A DNA stretch of 64,000 bases from Escherichia coli (GTDB lineage Bacteria > Pseudomonadota > Gammaproteobacteria > Enterobacterales > Enterobacteriaceae): assembly GCF_041886205.1 (NCBI RefSeq), contig NZ_CP169029.1. One strand, 5' to 3'. This document shows positions 32,607 to 44,700 of this stretch, piece by piece; within the stretch, counting starts at the first letter, position 1, and each line of letters begins with the position of its first letter. A program made the position numbers and the translations under genes. A model generated the notes under the pieces. It saw only the letters and a program-made list of their open reading frames with translations, ran no database searches and was not told the origin of the DNA.

Positions 32607-32688
32607 TCACGGCATCAACCCATTGAACAGACGTTTTTTACGCGGCCCGGTCATTAAAGATTCCAGTTTCGCGACACAGGTTTTGTAG
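32122..32688 (+). CDS. tnpA: TnpA, IS200-type Y1 (HuH) transposase; C-terminal extent uncertain (ORF runs to 188 aa and overlaps the lsrG 3' end)
   Basis: HuH motif (HVHLLINY) and tyrosine-containing C-terminal region (YIEQQ); typical family members are about 140-155 aa. Confidence 0.8.
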
Positions 32689-32894
32689 TGGGGCGTGGTT
32701 TTATGGAACGCCACTGCGTCTTCATCTTTATAGGCTTCGTAGATATAAAAGCGCGAATTCACTTCCGGGTCCTGTAAGACATCGAAGCGCAAATTGCCTT
32801 CTTCCTGTACAGAGCCCAGGTGGTTCTGGCGAAAAACTTCGATAAACTCGTCAACCTTGTCTTCATGAACGTTAATTTCAACCAGTGTGACGTG
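32607..32894 (-). CDS. lsrG: (4S)-4-hydroxy-5-phosphonooxypentane-2,3-dione isomerase (96 aa)
   Basis: ABM-domain ORF starting [10 protein letters not shown]; last gene of the lsr operon. Confidence 0.9.
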
Positions 32895-32919
32895 CATGTT
32901 TCTTCTCCTTAATCCGCAG

Positions 32920-33795
32920 TTACTGTTTTTCACTCAGATAGAGTTCATATGCCCGATCAGCCGTTTCGTTATGGTGTACCACCGCCTGTACGGCTTTCAT
33001 CATCGCCACCGGATGGTCAGACTGGAAAATATTACGCCCCATATCCACACCAGAAGCGCCCTGATCGATAGCCTGCCAGCACATTTCCAGCGCCTCGCGC
33101 TCCGGTAATTTTTTACCGCCAGCAATAACAATGGGTACCGGACATCCGGCAACAATCCGTTCAAAACCTTTATCGACATAATAGGTTTTGATAATTTGCG
33201 CCCCCATTTCAGCGGCGATTCGAGTCGCGAGCGAGAAATAACGCTGATCGCGCACCATATCTTTGCCCACGCCTGTCACGGCCATGGTCGGCATTCCCAC
33301 TTTCATTCCGGCATCAACCAGCTGAATAATATTTTTGATCGACTGATGTTCATATTCGCTGCCGATATAAACCTGCGCCGCCACCGCGCAACTGTTCAGG
33401 CGCACGGCGTCATCCATCGATAACGCCACGGCTTCATTACTTAATTCCGCCAGAATAGAGTTCGCACCTGACGCCCGCAGTACCACCGGCCTATTGGTCG
33501 CAGGGGGAACTACGCTGCGCAAAATGCCGCGCGTACACATTAATACATCGGCATGTTCAAACAGCGGGGCGATATTTATATCAATGCGTTCAAGTCCGGT
33601 AGTCGGTCCCTGAAAATAACCATGGTCAAAAGCCAGCATCACGGTTTTACCCGTTTTCGGATTAAATATCCGCGATAAGCGTGACTGCATTCCCCAATCC
33701 AGCGCACCGCAACCTTTCAGGGTAAAAGGGATATTTTTTTGCGGTTGATCGGTACGAAAATCTTTACCATCTTTAATATCGTCTAAATCTGCCAT
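32920..33795 (-). CDS. lsrF: 3-hydroxy-5-phosphonooxypentane-2,4-dione thiolase, DeoC/aldolase family (291 aa)
   Basis: Class I aldolase-like sequence in conserved lsr position. Confidence 0.9.
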
Positions 33796-33821
33796 AACTT
33801 ACTCCGGTTAAGTAATGCACA

Positions 33822-34844
33822 TCAGAAATCGTATTTGCCGATATTCTCTTTGTTGAATATCACGCGCTCCGGTAACAGTACGATGCCATTACCATCCGCT
33901 TCGTAGTCATAGCCCTGAACGCTGTTTGGCGAGACTTCAACCTGACCTACGCCCTTGATATCCAGCTTGTCGCCCGTTTTCATTGATCCTTTTTTCAATA
34001 ATGCATCCGCGACATACACTGAAATTTTGCCTTGCTGAACCACATCCCACAGGCCAAATTCTTTCACCGTGCCGCGCTCTACATACGGGCGCATCACATT
34101 TGGCGTACTGAATCCGACAATCGCAACTTTGTCATTTTTCAGGTTTTCTGCGGCTTGTGCGGCAGCGGGCAGGGCGTTGGCATCAGGGGCGATAATGGCG
34201 TCGAGATCGCTATACGCTTTTAATATTCCTTCTGCGGTTTGTAACGATTTAGTGGCATCGTTATAGCCAAACTGCGTAGTGACAATTTCCCAGCCAGGAT
34301 GCTCTTTGGCGATTTTCGCTTTCGCTTCTTTCACCCACTGGTTTTGGTCCGTAACGGTGGGGCTTGAGTAGAAAAACGCGACTTTGGCTTTGTCTTTATT
34401 CACCTGACGCGCCGCCATATCCACCAACATACCTCCCAACTGGGCGGGCGTTCCCTGATTAATGTAGTAAGAGCGGCACTCCGGTTTAGTATCAGAGTCC
34501 CAGGTCAGCACTCTCACACCACGTTGCATGGCGCGTTTCAGTGCCGGACACAAGCCATCAGGCGAAACCGCAGAAACGATAATGGCGTTATAACCCTGAT
34601 TGACGAAGTTATTAATCAACTGTACCTGACCAGAAACACTGGGTTCTGTCGGCCCGTCGTAGGTCACATCAACGCCCAGCTCTTTACCCGCTTGTTGTGC
34701 GCCGTTGCCACCACTGGTAAAAAATCCCACGCCAACCAGTTTGGGAATAAATGCAATACGCTCTGCGGCCTGCACATTCATAGAGATTGCGGCAATGCCA
34801 AGAGCGCTAAGTAAGGCGATTTTCTTAAAGCGATGAAGTGTCAT
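33822..34844 (-). CDS. lsrB: AI-2 periplasmic binding protein (340 aa)
   Basis: Signal peptide plus sugar-binding periplasmic protein fold. Confidence 0.9.
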
Positions 34845-34855
34845 GAAGATATCCT

Positions 34856-35848
34856 TTATGGCAATGGGTTATTGGCCCGACGCGCCAGCCACTCTTTAAT
34901 TTGCTGGCGATGCAGGCTAACGGAACGACCTACGACAACGACGATAAGTAGCGCACCGGAAAGGGCGCTGGACACCTGATTTGGCACTCCTGCCATTTGC
35001 AAACCTTGTTGCAAATATCCCACTAATAAAACCGCAATGGCGGTGCCGATAATGGAACCGGAACCACCATAAATATTGGCACCGCCAAGCACCACGGCGG
35101 TGATGGCGGGCATCAGAAACGACGCACCGAGATCGGAACGTGCTGAACCAAAATACGATACCAGCAGCACAGCGGCGACCGCAGACGCCAGCCCCGTCAT
35201 GGCATAGAGCGCACATAAGGTGCGGTTAACTGGAATCGCGCTATAAAGCGCCACGCGCGGGCTTTGCCCAATCAAAAACACATTACGTCCGGCATGGGTT
35301 TTATGCAGCCAGAGCCAGAAAACGAGGAGACATATCAGGAAGATAATCAGCGGAACGGGGAGCCCCAGCACATCCAGGTTAGCGAAATCTGTAAACGCCA
35401 TCGGGAATCCACCAATATCTTCGTACCCCGTCGCTCCGGCCATCCCGGAAAGCAGCAGGGCACTTCCGGCAAACAGATACAGCGTGCCAAGCGTAATCAC
35501 CAGCGGGTTAACTTTGGTATAGATAATTAATCCGGCGTTGATCAGCCCGCACAATACGCCGAGCAGTAAGGTCAGGAGTATCGCCAGCGGCATCGGCACA
35601 CCACTTTGAAACAGTACGCCCAATGCAATGGCGCAGAGGCCGATGGTCGAACCAAACGAAATATCGATCCCGCCACTGACAATCACCATCGTCAGCGGTA
35701 GGGCGACAATGCCAATGCAGATAAAGTCACTGGTGCTGAACAGCAACATATTGAGATCTAACATCCGCGGGTTAATTGCACCAAATGCGACAATCTCAAT
35801 AACGAGCAGTGCGGCAAGAGCCAGTTCCCAACCGTAGCGAATACGCAT
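34856..35848 (-). CDS. lsrD: AI-2 ABC transporter permease (330 aa)
   Basis: ABC-2 ribose-type permease ORF. Confidence 0.9.
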
Positions 35849-36876
35849 TATGCGGCCTCCCGTTTTTTACCTGACGAAGCGGGTTTAACGGATGGCGGTG
35901 GCGTCATAAAGCGGGCATATTTTTGCCGCCGCAGATTACGTTCCAGCGCACAACGCAGGCGTCCATCAAACACCAGCACCGCTAGCAGCACGAGGCCCGC
36001 GATAAAATCGTTCCACCATGCCGGAATGCGCAACAGCACCAGTACGCTATCGATCTGCGTCAGGAACCATGCGCCGAGTACCGCACCGATGATCGCACCG
36101 GAACCGCCGAGCAAACTAATGCCGCCCAGCACGCAGGCTGCAATTGCTTTCATCTCCAGCCCGGTACCGGTCTGGTTGGGGATAAAACCAATCTGCGAAG
36201 CAAACACAATCCCCGCCAGTGCCGCCATGCAGCCGTTCAACGAAAATGCCACAATGCGAATGGCTTCCGTACGAACGCCCAGTTGACGAGCTCCCTGTAA
36301 ATTATCGCCCGTGGCATAAAAACTGCGTCCAAACGCCGTCTTTGCCAGCAGCCAGGCCATAAATGCCACCAGAATTATCGTTAACTAACCAATTGCTGAA
36401 ACGCCAAGCAGCAGCGGGGCGGAGAGCTGTTTCAGTTCGGCGGGTAACCCCTCAATCCATTTACCGCCAGTCCACAGCAACATGATGCCTCTGTACAACC
36501 CTAACGAGCCAAGGGTGGCAACAATGGCAGGGATCTTTAGCCACGCGACCAGGACACCGTTGAAAAATCCCGCGAGCAAACCAAGCAGTAAAGTCGCGAC
36601 ACAGGCAACAGGTAGTGAATATCCTGCGTTCAGTAACATCCCCAACAGCACCGCGCACATTCCGGTAATCGAACCCACTGAAACATCAATATTGCGCGTA
36701 AGCATTACCAGCGTCGCGCCCATTGCCAGCAGGATCAGGATTTGCGCGCTGCTATAAACCATGGTCAGCGTTTGCACACTTAAATACTGGCGGTCGAGAA
36801 AACCGGGTAATACAAACAGCAGCACCACCGCCAGCAGTGCCGTGATTTCACGGTTGTTCTGAATAAACTTCAGCAT
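35848..36876 (-). pseudogene. lsrC: lsrC AI-2 ABC permease interrupted by an in-frame TAG stop (minus-strand codon at 36385-36387)
   Basis: Single reading frame carries the N-terminal 163 codons, then TAG, then continues in the same frame (...[17 protein letters not shown]...); the ORF track splits it into 36385..36876 and 35848..36369. Confidence 0.85.
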
Positions 36877-38395
36877 GACGCCTCCTGACGCTGACTATCG
36901 CCGAAGGCAACGCGCATAATAGTCTCGACATTAATATCGCGCCCGGTCAGTGCAGAGTGGGTAATTTCGCCCTGATGCATCACATACACACGATCTGCCA
37001 TCAGTTCGATCTCTTCCAGATCAGAGGAGATAAGCAGCACTGCCACATTCTGTGCGGCGATGCTGCGCAACAGCTGGTAGATATCATTACGGGCTGAGAC
37101 ATCCACGCCGCGCGTCGGCTCATCGACAATCAATGCTTGCGGCGAAGCTTCCAGGCATTTGGCAATGAGGATTTTTTGCTGGTTGCCACCGGATAATGTC
37201 CGTGCAGCTTGTTCCGGTTGGTTAAATTTAATATTCAGCGCCCGACGATATCGTTCCAGGGTGGCATTATCTTTCGCGGTTTTCGCCCAGAATCCACGAA
37301 GGTTATGAGTAAGGGCGCAGACGTTCCACGCCAGTGAAGCATCGAGATTCAGTCCGGATGACTGGCGATCTTCCGGCAGATAAACCAGACCGCGCAGTAA
37401 ACGTTCTCCGGTGGATAATCTATTGATCTCTTTACCATTCAGCATAATGCTTCCGCCACGCAAACTACGCAGACCATAGAGCGTCTCGGCCAGTTCTGTG
37501 CGTCCGGCTCCCACCAGCCCAGCCAGGCCCAGAATTTCTCCGGCATTGAGCGTCAGGCTGACATTCCTGAAACCTTCGCCAGTCAGATTTTCCAGTGTCA
37601 GCACCGACGTTCCGGCGGCATGTTGTGGGCGGTTACCAGGTAACTCCAGCCATAATTTTTGGCTGGCAGAGAGCGATTTTTCCCGTACCACTGGCGTGAT
37701 GGCCTGAATAATGTCGTCGGTAGACAGTTCGCTGGTTTTGCCGCTTAAGGCGATGGTTCCGTCGCGCATCACGCTAATTCGATCGGCAATCTGGCGAATT
37801 TCCGGCAGCTTATGCGAGATAAAAACAATACCCACGCCAGTAGCAAGCAGCTCTTGCAAGCGACTAAACAAGCGTTCGGTTTCCGCAGGGGTAAGCGAGG
37901 CGGTAGGTTCAGAATCCGCGAGTCGCGCATCAGCCCGCGGAGGATTTCCACCATTTGGCGATCGGCGACATCCAGCGATCCTGCCAGACTATGCAGATCA
38001 AACTGGCAGCCCAGCGCCGCCAGCAAGTTCTTCATTTTCTGCATGGAGAGCTGTTTTTTTGCCAGCCCAAACAGGATGTTTTCTTTTATCGACAGGCTTG
38101 GAAAAAGCAGCGGTTCCTGGGGAACGAGATAAATACCCAGCTGATGAGCATGAACTGGCGTTAATCTGGCGTAGTTGTTGCCCCCAATCTTCAGCGTACC
38201 GCTATCAGCAGGGGTAATACCGGCAATAATCTTCATTAACGTCGATTTACCGGCACCATTGCCGCCGAGCAGGGCGTGGACCTCCCCCTGATGCAACGTA
38301 AAATCGATGCCTTTCAGGACATTGACCCCTGAATACTGTTTATAAACCGAGCGGGCGCAAAGTAGCGGTAACGCGCGGGTATCACTCGTTTGCAT
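36870..38395 (-). pseudogene. lsrA: lsrA AI-2 ABC transporter ATPase disrupted by a frameshift near 37905-37915
   Basis: N-terminal ORF (37769..38395) has Walker [10 protein letters not shown] and runs ...RDSRIL then out of frame; the C-terminal ORF (36870..37871) continues the ABC ATPase in another frame; Walker B hhhhDE not encoded in frame. Confidence 0.85.
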
Positions 38396-38643
38396 ATTTC
38401 CCCTGTTCAGTTTTGCAGGTGAGTTTTGAACAAATGTATTTCTGCTTTTAATTTGTTCATAACCTTAGGTGGACATTGCACATATTTCCGACGAATAGAT
38501 CACAATTTATGCTATTTTGATTCTCCCGGTTGCGTTTGTTCATACTCGTAGAGTCAAACTGTGGTTGCCATCACAGATATAAATGCGCAAGAACTGAACA
38601 ATTGCATTAAAGATTTAAATATGTTCAAAGTGAAGAATGAATT
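38396..38643. promoter_or_regulatory. Divergent lsrR / lsrACDBFG control region with a perfect inverted repeat TGAACAAAT-N15-ATTTGTTCA (38427-38459)
   Basis: Inverted repeat read directly; position between divergent lsrA and lsrR starts. Confidence 0.6.
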
Positions 38644-39597
38644 ATGACAATCAACGATTCGGTAATTTCAGAACAGGGAATGTGTGAAGAAGAACAGGTC
38701 GCGCGGATCGCGTGGTTTTACTACCACGACGGGCTGACCCAGAGTGAGATCAGCGATCGTCTCGGCCTGACCCGTTTGAAAGTGTCGCGATTACTGGAGA
38801 AAGGGCATCAATCCGGCATTATTCGCGTACAGATTAATTCTCGCTTTGAAGGCTGTCTGGAATATGAAACACAATTACGTCGTCAGTTTTCGCTGCAACA
38901 TGTCCGGGTGATCCCAGGGCTTGCGGATGCTGATGTCGGCGGGCGACTAGGGATAGGCGCGGCGCATATGTTGATGAGTTTACTTCAACCACAACAGATG
39001 CTGGCGATTGGTTTTGGCGAGGCAACCATGAATACGCTGCAACGCTTAAGTGGTTTTATTTCGTCACAGCAAATTCGCCTGGTCACGCTCTCCGGTGGAG
39101 TCGGTTCTTATATGACGGGTATCGGGCAGCTTAACGCGGCGTGCAGTGTGAATATTATTCCGGCTCCGTTGCGGGCATCCTCCGCTGACATTGCCCGTAC
39201 GCTAAAAAATGAAAATTGCGTCAAAGATGTTCTGCTAGCCGCGCAAGCAGCGGATGTGGCGATTGTCGGCATTGGTGCTGTGAGTCAACAGGACGATGCG
39301 ACAATCATTCGCTCCGGTTATATCAGCCAGGGCGAACAGTTAATGATTGGCCGAAAAGGTGCAATTGGCGACATTTTAGGCTACTTTTTTGATGCAAAAG
39401 GTGACGTTGTCACGGATATTAAAATACATAACGAACTGATTGGCTTACCTTTAAGCGCGCTGAAGACCATACCCGTCCGGGTTGGCGTGGCAGGGGGAGA
39501 AAATAAAGCCGAAGCAATTGTCGCTGCAATGAAAGGCGGTTATATCAACGCACTGGTCACCGATCAGGACACAGCAGCGGCGATTTTACGTAGTTAA
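38644..39597 (+). CDS. lsrR: LsrR repressor of the lsr operon (SorC family, 317 aa)
   Basis: N-terminal HTH plus sugar-phosphate binding domain. Confidence 0.9.
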
Positions 39598-41798: not shown

Positions 41799-44700
41799 AT
41801 GAATAGAATCTATCGCGTGATATGGAATTGCACCCTACAGGTATTTCAGGTCTGCTCGGAATTAACTCGCAGGGTAGGTAAAAAATCGACGGTTAATTTG
41901 CGTAAATCCTCTGGACTGACAACGAAATTCAGTAGATTGACGCTGGGTGTTTTGCTGGCACTAAGCGGTTCAGCGTCTGGTGCGAGTCTGGAAGTTGATA
42001 ATGATCAGATTACCAATATTGATACTGATGTTGCTTATGATGCCTACCTGGTTGGCTGGTATGGCACTGGAGTGCTTAATATTTTGGCTGGCGGTAATGC
42101 CTCCTTAACCACGATTACTACCAGCGTCATTGGTGGTAATGAGAACTCGAAGGGCACCGTTAATGTTTTGGGTGGCACCTGGCGATTGTATGATAGCGGA
42201 AATAATGCAAGGCCTTTAAATGTGGGTCAATCCGGAACGGGGACGCTGAATATTAAACAGAAAGGTCACGTTGATGGAGGATATTTAAGGCTAGGTTCCT
42301 CGACAGGAGGCGTCGGGACGGTCAATGTTGAGGGAGAGGACTCTGTTCTGACGACCGAATTATTCGAAATAGGGAGCTATGGCACAGGCTCATTAAATAT
42401 TACAGATAAGGGTTACGTCACGAGTTCAATAGTCGCCATTTTAGGCTATCAGGCGGGCGGTAATGGCCAGGTTGTCGTGGAAAAGGGCGGCGAGTGGCTA
42501 ATAAAAAATAACGATTCCTCAATTGAATTTCAAATTGGTAATCAAGGAACGGGGGAAGCGACTATTCGCGGGGGTGGGCTGATTACGGCTGAAAACACGA
42601 TTATCGGTGGCAATGCCACCGGTATCGGAACCCTGAATGTGCAGGATCAAGACTCTGTCATCACGGTACGCAGACTCTATAATGGATATTTCGGCAATGG
42701 CACAGTCAATATTTCCAATAATGGACTGATTAATAACAAAGAATATTCATTGGTGGGCGTTCAGGACGGTTCCCACGGTGTCATCAACGTGACCGATAAA
42801 GGGCATTGGAATTTCCTCGGAACAGGCGAAGCTTTCCGCTATATCTATATCGGTGATGCTGGCGACGGTGAACTTAATGTCTCGAGTGAAGGCAAAGTAG
42901 ATTCGGGAATTATCACTGCGGGGATGAAAGAAACAGGCACAGGCAACATTACTGTTAAGGATAAGAACTCCGTTATCACTAATCTCGGAACTAATCTTGG
43001 TTATGACGGCCACGGCGAAATGAATATCAGTAATGAGGGGCTTGTTGTCAGCAACGGAGGAAGTTCACTCGGTTATGGAGAAACCGGCGTCGGGAATGTC
43101 AGCATCACCACGGGGGGGATGTGGGAGGTCAATAAGAATGTCTATACCACCATTGGTGTTGCGGGTGTCGGAAACCTCAATATTAGCGATGGCGGTAAGT
43201 TTGTATCGCAAAATATTACTTTTTTGGGCGATAAAGCAAGCGGTATCGGCACACTGAACCTGATGGATGCGACATCATCGTTCGATACTGTGGGTATCAA
43301 TGTCGGTAATTTTGGTAGCGGTATCGTAAATGTCAGTAATGGTGCCACCCTTAATTCAACGGGCTATGGATTTATCGGAGGAAATGCCTCCGGTAAGGGG
43401 ATAGTTAATATTTCAACGGATAGTCTCTGGAATTTAAAGACATCATCTACTAACGCCCAATTGCTACAGGTCGGTGTATTAGGCACGGGTAAACTGAATA
43501 TTACCACCGGAGGTATAGTTAAAGCGCGTGATACACAGATAGCTCTCAATGACAAAAGTAAGGGCGACGTGAGGGTGGATGGGCAGAACTCTCTGCTTGA
43601 AACATTCAATATGAACGTAGGGACGACTGGCACGGGTACGTTAACCCTGACGAATAACGGCACGCTGAATGTTGAGGGTGGCGAAGTTTACTTAGGTGTT
43701 TTTGAACCTGCTGTAGGAACGCTAAACATTGGTGCTGCTCACGGTGAGGCGGCGGCAGATGCCGGGTTTATCACCAACGCGACGAAAGTAGAGTTTGGTT
43801 CTGGCGAAGGTGTTTTTGTCTTTAATCATACCAATAACAGTGATACCGGCTACCAGGTCGATATGCTGATTACGGGTGACGATAAAGACGGAAAAGTGAT
43901 ACATGATGCAGGCCATACGGTGTTCAATGCAGGGAATACTTATAGCGGTAAAACGCTGGTCAATGACGGCCTCCTGACCATTGCGTCACATACGGCAGAT
44001 GGGGTAACGGGCATGGGTTCGAGTGAAGTAACCATTGCAAGCCCCGGTACGCTCGACATTCTCGCATCAACGAACAGTGCAGGAGATTACACGCTGACCA
44101 ATGCGCTCAAAGGCGATGGCTTGATGCGAGTTCAGCTGTCATCCTCCGACAAGATGTTTGGCTTTACCCATGCAACAGGGGCTGAATTCGCCGGTGTTGC
44201 CCAACTGAAAGACAGTACCTTCACTCTGGAACGCGACAACACCGCTGCGCTTACTCACGCGATGTTGCAGTCTGACATTGAAAATACCACATCGGTAAAC
44301 GTGGGAGAGCAATCCATTGGTGGACTGGCCATGAATGGCGGTACGCTCATTTTCGATACGGATATTCCTGCTGCGACGCTTGCAGAGGGATATATCAGCG
44401 TCGATACGCTGGTTGTCGGCGCGGGTGACTACACCTGGAAAGGCCGTAACTATCAGGTAAACGGGACGGGCGACGTGCTTATCGACGTGCCTAAACCGTG
44501 GAATGATCCCATGGCGAATAACCCTCTGACGACGCTCAATTTGCTGGAACACGATGATAGCCATGTCGGCGTTCAACTGGTGAAGGCGCAAACGGTTATT
44601 GGGTCGGGTGGTTCATTAACGTTACGTGATTTACAGGGCAACGAGGTGGAAGCGGACAAAACGTTACATATTGCGCAAAACGGAACGGTGGTCGCCGAGG

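Follow-up and report, generated by a model that had tools for sequence, protein, structure and literature searches.

We found that the inverted repeat at positions 38427-38459 of the window (the whole 64,000-nucleotide stretch of E. coli DNA analysed here) is very probably the lsrA-proximal operator of LsrR, the AI-2 repressor, an assignment drawn from comparison of sequences. A sequence-only reading had reported a perfect 9-bp inverted repeat at this place, between the divergent lsr promoters, and named it a candidate LsrR operator. The sequence, the coordinates and the gene context were all correct, and the operator proposal was strongly favoured by the comparative and homology evidence. That LsrR controls the lsr operon is textbook knowledge of AI-2 quorum sensing, the locus is well studied, and both the kind of site and its regulator are already known. 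Finding the operator of such a repressor is no discovery and the gain is one of precision, with a modest added value in a sharper definition of the motif, a link to the DeoR operator and a possible ancestral layout of three sites.

The repeat, called site A here, is a candidate operator of 33 bp. Its arms, TGAACAAAT (38427-38435) and ATTTGTTCA (38451-38459), were complementary at 9 of 9 nucleotides, or at 12 of 13 (92%) when lengthened to 38423-38463, and they enclose a variable 15-nt core, GTATTTCTGCTTTTA. Site A was located 32-64 nt upstream of the lsrA ATG, inside the divergent control region of lsrA and lsrR, whose start codons (38395 on the minus strand and 38644 on the plus strand) are separated by an intergenic span of 248 nt. 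The identity of both genes was taken from NCBIfam equivalog models and from the RefSeq annotation of E. coli genomes with 98-99.6% identity, and a 281-nt stretch was 98-99.6% identical to the lsrR/lsrA region in 4171 complete E. coli genomes. The lsrR gene (38644-39597, plus strand) was intact and encodes a protein of 317 aa matching NF011947 with 619 bits, a SorC/DeoR-subfamily repressor (PDB 4GO1/4L5I) with four amino-acid differences from K-12. LsrR is the repressor expected to bind site A and the second copy, site R, described below.

Taken alone, a perfect 9-nt inverted repeat with a short loop is unremarkable. The window contained 19 of them with a loop of at most 30 nt, against 7.0 +/- 2.6 expected from first-order Markov simulations, a count that lends itself to the reading of site A as a chance palindrome in AT-rich intergenic DNA. 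Site A is beyond chance because of a second copy, an enrichment of its hexamers, and an invariance across genera that persists while the interior diverges; these conservation data exclude a chance palindrome, to which we assign a negligible probability.

The second copy, site R (38595-38627; TGAACAATTGCATTAAAGATTTAAATATGTTCA, TGAACA-N21-TGTTCA), was found 168 bp from site A, start to start. It has the same geometry, agreeing with site A at all but 2 of the 18 arm positions and showing 76% identity across the 33 nt, and 0.05-0.08 matches of this kind would be expected by chance per window. When TGAACA-N15-27-TGTTCA was searched in the 64 kb, sites A and R were the only occurrences, with 0.08 expected. 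The TGAACA/TGTTCA hexamers themselves were observed six times in the 248-nt intergenic region, where the window rate predicts 0.16 (approximately 40-fold enrichment). Site R occupies the stretch 17-49 nt ahead of the lsrR start codon, and must therefore overlap the lsrR promoter or its start. Both operators were identical to those of K-12, and the five differences within the intergenic region fall elsewhere. A window-specific T at 38404 (C in K-12) creates the sixth TGTTCA hexamer (38404-38409), beside the lsrA Shine-Dalgarno sequence, and also completes a small terminator-like hairpin on the plus strand (38402-38419; CCTGTTCAGTTTTGCAGG followed by a T-run). The stretch (T/C)GAACGGAGG was moderately conserved across genera, at a variable distance from site A.

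To assess conservation, we scanned for LsrR proteins using one genome per species and obtained 25 loci with divergent lsrA and lsrR, from Escherichia, Citrobacter, Kluyvera, an uncultured enterobacterium, Superficieibacter, Izhakiella, Serratia, Mangrovibacter, Buttiauxella and Edwardsiella, with 63 to 97% LsrR identity to the query. A search of a plasmid collection brought in Salmonella, Klebsiella and Enterobacter, giving 28 enterobacterial loci from about 12 genera. The outer hexamers of site A, TGAACA-N21-TGTTCA, were present without a mismatch in 28 of the 28 loci, while the central 13 nt or so varied freely. In an alignment of 11 sequences at the genus level, the outer hexamers had a mean pairwise identity of 1.00 and the 9-nt arms one of 0.96-0.98, compared to 0.58 within the 15-nt interior and 0.62 over the intergenic region as a whole, i.e. 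site A is conserved at orthologous lsr loci where the neighbouring DNA has diverged. Site R showed 0-2 hexamer mismatches across genera. The remaining invariant blocks were two CRP-type elements, GATCAC (38498-503) and TGTGG...TCACAG (38560-76).

Beyond the enterobacteria, alphaproteobacterial lsr loci (S. meliloti pSymB and Thalassospira) had TGTTCA-type hexamers but not the N21 geometry. These loci instead carried a 34-bp quasi-palindrome with everted TGTTCA/TGATCA-type hexamers and an inner TTCATGAA (S. meliloti pSymB, locus L033, 2230-2263; Thalassospira, locus L032), located 9 nt from the lsrA start, and the LsrR recognition helix was conserved all the same. The lsr locus of a record labelled Roseateles sp. 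XES5 (L034, UNVERIFIED_ORG), its intergenic region included, was almost collinear with that of Sinorhizobium meliloti pSymB, which suggests from sequence that its organism label is wrong.

A third copy, central to the other two, was observed in several genera. This site C has the form TGAATA-N21-(T/A)GTTCA in Salmonella, Kluyvera, Superficieibacter, Serratia, Edwardsiella and others, and in several genera lies 83-84 bp from each neighbouring operator, most clearly in Salmonella. In a Salmonella Senftenberg record filed as a plasmid (locus L029, 2287-2485), three near-perfect 33-bp operators were spaced exactly 83 bp apart, with the central one between both CRP-like elements. In E. coli, including this window, the left half has gone, and only the right arm (GTTTGTTCA, 38535-43) remains at the place of the central copy (38511-38543). 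The distance from site A to site R was 166-168 bp in most genera and 163 bp in Buttiauxella and Enterobacter. One Buttiauxella locus (sp. A111, L026, about 2770-2890) had an insertion of about 120 bp that extends this distance from 163 to 285 bp; its inverted-repeat-like content may represent a REP or a miniature mobile element. We considered helical phasing as evidence for looping and rejected it, since with spacings of 163 to 285 bp phasing is not universal, and we regard LsrR looping between sites as a low-probability arrangement.

The position of site A relative to the lsrA promoter was examined next to the two CRP-type elements. On the lsrA-sense strand, TAAGGT-TA (38467-38460) directly precedes site A, and TAAGGT (38462-38467, minus strand) is a candidate -10 element, so that site A would begin 2 nt past the -10 of a CRP-dependent lsrA promoter. 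Its first, second and last bases (TAnnnT) were conserved across genera at a fixed distance from site A, with variants including TAAGGT, TACCGT, TACTGT, TATGTT and TACGCT, and the alignment was gap-free between site A and a conserved CRP half-site. If TAAGGT is the -10, transcription would start near 38455, the CRP-like core at 38489-38504 would be centred at -41.5 (the class II position), and site A would extend from about -4 to about +29, where steric repressors classically bind. Site A thus probably covers the lsrA transcription start. A sigma-70 consensus scan found no promoter, and such a scan is uninformative for CRP-dependent promoters.

Only the TGTGATC half of the first CRP-like site (38489-38504, minus strand; TGTGATCTATTCGTCG) was conserved, with GATCAC invariant, and a 'CRPI' box has been placed beside TGTGCAAT (38476-83) (PMC5137460). 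The second CRP site (38560-38575; TGTGGTTGCCATCACA) had one mismatch to TGTGA-N6-TCACA and both halves conserved across genera. It was the only match to TGTGA-N6-TCACA with at most two mismatches in the intergenic region, and none overlapped 38427-59. The suggestion in the sequence-only reading that the repeat might overlap a CRP site was not borne out: the only good match is at 38560-38575, the conserved half-site GATCAC is about 40 bp away, and the nearest CRP-like core starts 30 bp beyond the repeat (about 54 bp centre to centre).

TGTTCG/CGAACA-type half-sites serve other sugar repressors, and the repeat could in principle belong to a regulator other than LsrR, for example CRP, CytR or a GlpR-like repressor. 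The region depends on CRP, and one proposal puts a CytR site close by (PMC5137460). However, no CRP match with at most two mismatches overlaps the repeat, and the proposed CytR motif is the same TGTGCAAT at 38476-83. The element also accompanies the lsrR-lsrA locus through about 12 genera and in the Salmonella record filed as a plasmid, and it matches the operator of DeoR, the structural homologue of LsrR. We therefore consider another factor very unlikely.

An equally improbable alternative is that the repeat is no DNA operator but works in RNA, where a hairpin in the 5' leader of lsrA would influence the stability of the mRNA or its translation. The lsrA-sense RNA of site A folded at -9.3 kcal/mol with a z-score of -3.8, and transcription starting near 38455 would take in most of the repeat. 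That same start, however, would leave most of the 5' arm (38451-38459) untranscribed and so form no hairpin. The stem is A/U-rich with a 15-nt loop, site R folded no better than shuffled sequence (z-scores of -0.1 to -0.8), and the arms are invariant, so that no compensatory change or covariation backs the pairing. The hexamer pair moreover recurs at three phased positions that are transcribed in different directions. Site A did not have the G+C-rich stem and U-tract of a terminator, and the only terminator-like hit was a different hairpin, the one at 38402-38419.

The DNA operator reading was then compared with the LsrR boxes in the literature. In the portion of Xue et al. 2009 (Cell Res 19:1258) relayed in PMC8487509, the p-lsrA-box consists of AAAACT and AAAACTGAA, both needed for binding, and the p-lsrR-box of AACAAT and AAGATTTAA. 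On the lsrR side, these relayed motifs fall inside site R (AACAAT at 38597-602 and AAGATTTAA at 38610-18). The limits given elsewhere for the lsrR-side box, -237..-197 from the lsrA ATG (PMC5137460), correspond to 38592-38632 of the window, that is, to site R plus or minus 3-5 bp. The published lsrR-side box is site R, and so the homologous copy of site A is a documented LsrR site. On the lsrA side, the relayed motifs occupy 38407-38427 on the minus strand (AAAACTGAA as the reverse complement of 38407-15 and AAAACT as that of 38422-27), between site A and the ribosome-binding site and with one base in common with the repeat. The sequence-only reading had named footprinting of LsrR elsewhere in the intergenic region as grounds against its proposal, and the lsrA-side motifs go part of the way towards this.

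This raises the possibility that LsrR contacts the lsrA promoter through the AT-rich boxes at 38407-38427 only and that the palindrome is irrelevant to it. In addition to the binding requirement relayed from Xue et al., the LsrR motif still appears as NNNTTTTNN--NNNTTTTNN in a paper from 2026 (PMC13393413). Against this, the relayed boxes were among the least conserved parts of the intergenic region (mean pairwise identity of 0.48 and 0.55), with indels shifting them relative to site A. The stretch was missing altogether in Buttiauxella, Klebsiella and Enterobacter, where about 15 nt separate site A from the lsrA start codon, and the lsrR-side box relayed from the same authors is itself within a copy of the palindrome. 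AAAACT directly borders the TGTTCA arm, and AAAACTGAA shares bases with another TGAAC hexamer; mutations of the two motifs may therefore have disturbed adjoining hexamer contacts. We consider recognition through the boxes only to be unlikely.

Promoter-up mutations clustered in the 'LsrR box' (38603-38609 of the window) were selected in an lsrR deletion host (PMC5137460). Relief from LsrR repression therefore cannot be how they work, and loss of the divergent lsrR core promoter is a possible cause. Hauk et al. 2016 reported that distal p-lsrR-box mutations raised expression in the lsrA direction. We rejected this as evidence for cooperation or looping between sites A and R since both selection and assays were made in LW6, an lsrR deletion strain, and interference from the divergent lsrR promoter is the more likely cause.

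We found no description of a dyad for LsrR in the open-access literature that was searched, and the MG1655 RefSeq record was without binding-site features in the lsrR-lsrA intergenic region. A more general proposal, which we offer tentatively as a possibility, is that the true LsrR element is the 33-bp DeoR-type dyad and not the AT-rich boxes, with ancestral operators A, C and R of which E. coli has half-lost C. If true, ancestral operators repeated every 83-84 bp or so, with two CRP sites in between, could have formed a phased cooperative LsrR array or loop. The AT-rich boxes have been used in open-access papers to predict LsrR targets, e.g. katG, ahpCF, cysP and fimA. A dyad that occurs in about 12 genera, and that B. 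subtilis DeoR shares, would offer a far more specific search pattern for genuine LsrR targets, and would aid the design of synthetic lsr promoters.

The operator is accompanied in this genome by a damaged AI-2 importer. The lsrA gene (36870-38395, minus strand) is a pseudogene with a frameshifting 10-bp deletion near 37912, corresponding to nt 485-494 of K-12 lsrA. This deletion was rare (about 4 of 4187 complete E. coli genomes, including wlxctx60 and 6EVA). The lsrC gene (35848-36876, minus strand) is also a pseudogene, with a TGG-to-TAG change at codon 164 (W164*, 36385-36387) that was absent from wlxctx60; from sequence, the two lesions are independent hits on the importer within one lineage. 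Downstream in the operon under the predicted control of site A, lsrD, lsrB, lsrF and lsrG (32607-35848, minus strand) were intact, with no internal stops and 0-2 amino-acid differences from K-12, and lsrK was full length. Past lsrK, an intact ORF of 1806 aa was observed at 41799-47219, which near-identical E. coli records place in the ECSE_1600 family of autotransporters; this gene is a frameshifted pseudogene in a K-12 derivative and intact in wlxctx60.

The contrast of a broken transporter and an intact repressor, drawn in the sequence-only reading, held for lsrA, lsrC and the full-length lsrR and lsrK, while lsrD, lsrB, lsrF and lsrG were intact. Its further idea that the repeat may now mainly serve lsrR autoregulation found no support, as the lsrR-side copy is site R and the repeat itself sits on the predicted core promoter of lsrA, from which lsrD, lsrB, lsrF and lsrG, all intact, are still driven. 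The premature stops in lsrA and lsrC could, through polarity, lower the expression of these four genes. An unchanged operator despite dead lsrA and lsrC fits recent pseudogenisation together with continued regulated expression of lsrB, lsrF and lsrG.

The protein side of the assignment comes from DeoR. The helix-turn-helix of LsrR aligned with that of B. subtilis DeoR (PDB 8R7Y, 7BHY), and the recognition helix R-x-x-V-S-R-L-L was kept in gamma- and alphaproteobacterial LsrR proteins. The base-contacting arginines of DeoR, R34 and R39, correspond to R44 and R49 of LsrR, both retained, and the half-sites of site A are dyad-symmetric and of the TTGAACA type read by the homeodomain-like HTH of SorC/DeoR proteins. 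The DeoR operator of dra-nupC-pdp is the 39-bp ATTGAACAAAATTTCAATTACCAATTTACATATGTTCAA, i.e. TGAACA-N23-TGTTCA; it is bound by one tetramer, neither half is bound alone, and each half includes a weaker inner subsite (PMC11229326). According to the same paper, LsrR forms tetramers in crystals, and Xue 2009 is cited there for its tetrameric assembly on DNA. Of the 12 positions at the right end of site R (AAATATGTTCAA), 11 agreed with the corresponding end of the DeoR operator (ACATATGTTCAA), and the left end of site A (TTGAACAAATGTA) resembled the complement of the DeoR right half (TTGAACATATGTA).

On this basis, we propose that one LsrR tetramer, a dimer of dimers, would occupy each 33-bp site. 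Each dimer of DNA-binding domains would read one outer (T)TGAACA hexamer and, about one helical turn inward, a weaker A/T-rich inner subsite (ATGT or AATT), leaving the central 11-13 bp or so as a spacer without specific contacts. LsrR bound at site A may then exclude RNA polymerase or block open-complex formation. Phospho-AI-2 would break the tetramer, the avidity for two halves would be lost and the promoter would open, while site R would have the same role at the lsrR promoter and provide autoregulation. The dyad would in this way explain both the tetramer as the DNA-binding form and derepression through its dissociation by phospho-AI-2.

Compared with the E. coli LsrR boxes of Xue et al. 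2009, in so far as PMC8487509 relays them, sites A and R involve the same regulator and the same intergenic region, with one site per divergent promoter. The relayed motif is AT-rich with little shared sequence, whereas A and R share the defined dyad TGAACA-N21-TGTTCA, and a third, central site not in the published scheme was found here in several genera. The B. subtilis DeoR operator also resembles the lsr sites. Both it and site A have inverted outer hexamers, TTGAACA ... TGTTCAA, and the TGTA of site A matches TGTAA, the complement of the inner TTACA of DeoR. Total lengths are similar (33-39 bp for the lsr sites and the DeoR operator), the recognition helix of DeoR, also a tetrameric repressor, is almost identical to that of LsrR, and the DeoR operator overlaps a core promoter in a divergent regulator-operon region, as is predicted for the lsr sites. 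They differ in the spacing of the outer hexamers (21 bp in the lsr sites and 23 bp in the DeoR operator), in the tighter TTGAA-N6-TTCAA palindrome of the DeoR left half, in the effector (phospho-AI-2 for LsrR and deoxyribose-5-phosphate for DeoR), and in the number of operators, one for DeoR and two or three for lsr; the organisms and regulons also differ. B. subtilis CggR (SorC/CggR subfamily, 45 bp) likewise binds a bipartite 40-45-bp operator as a tetramer that its effector disassembles. Unlike LsrR, CggR has a winged-helix DNA-binding domain and recognizes G-rich direct repeats in an operator downstream of the transcription start.
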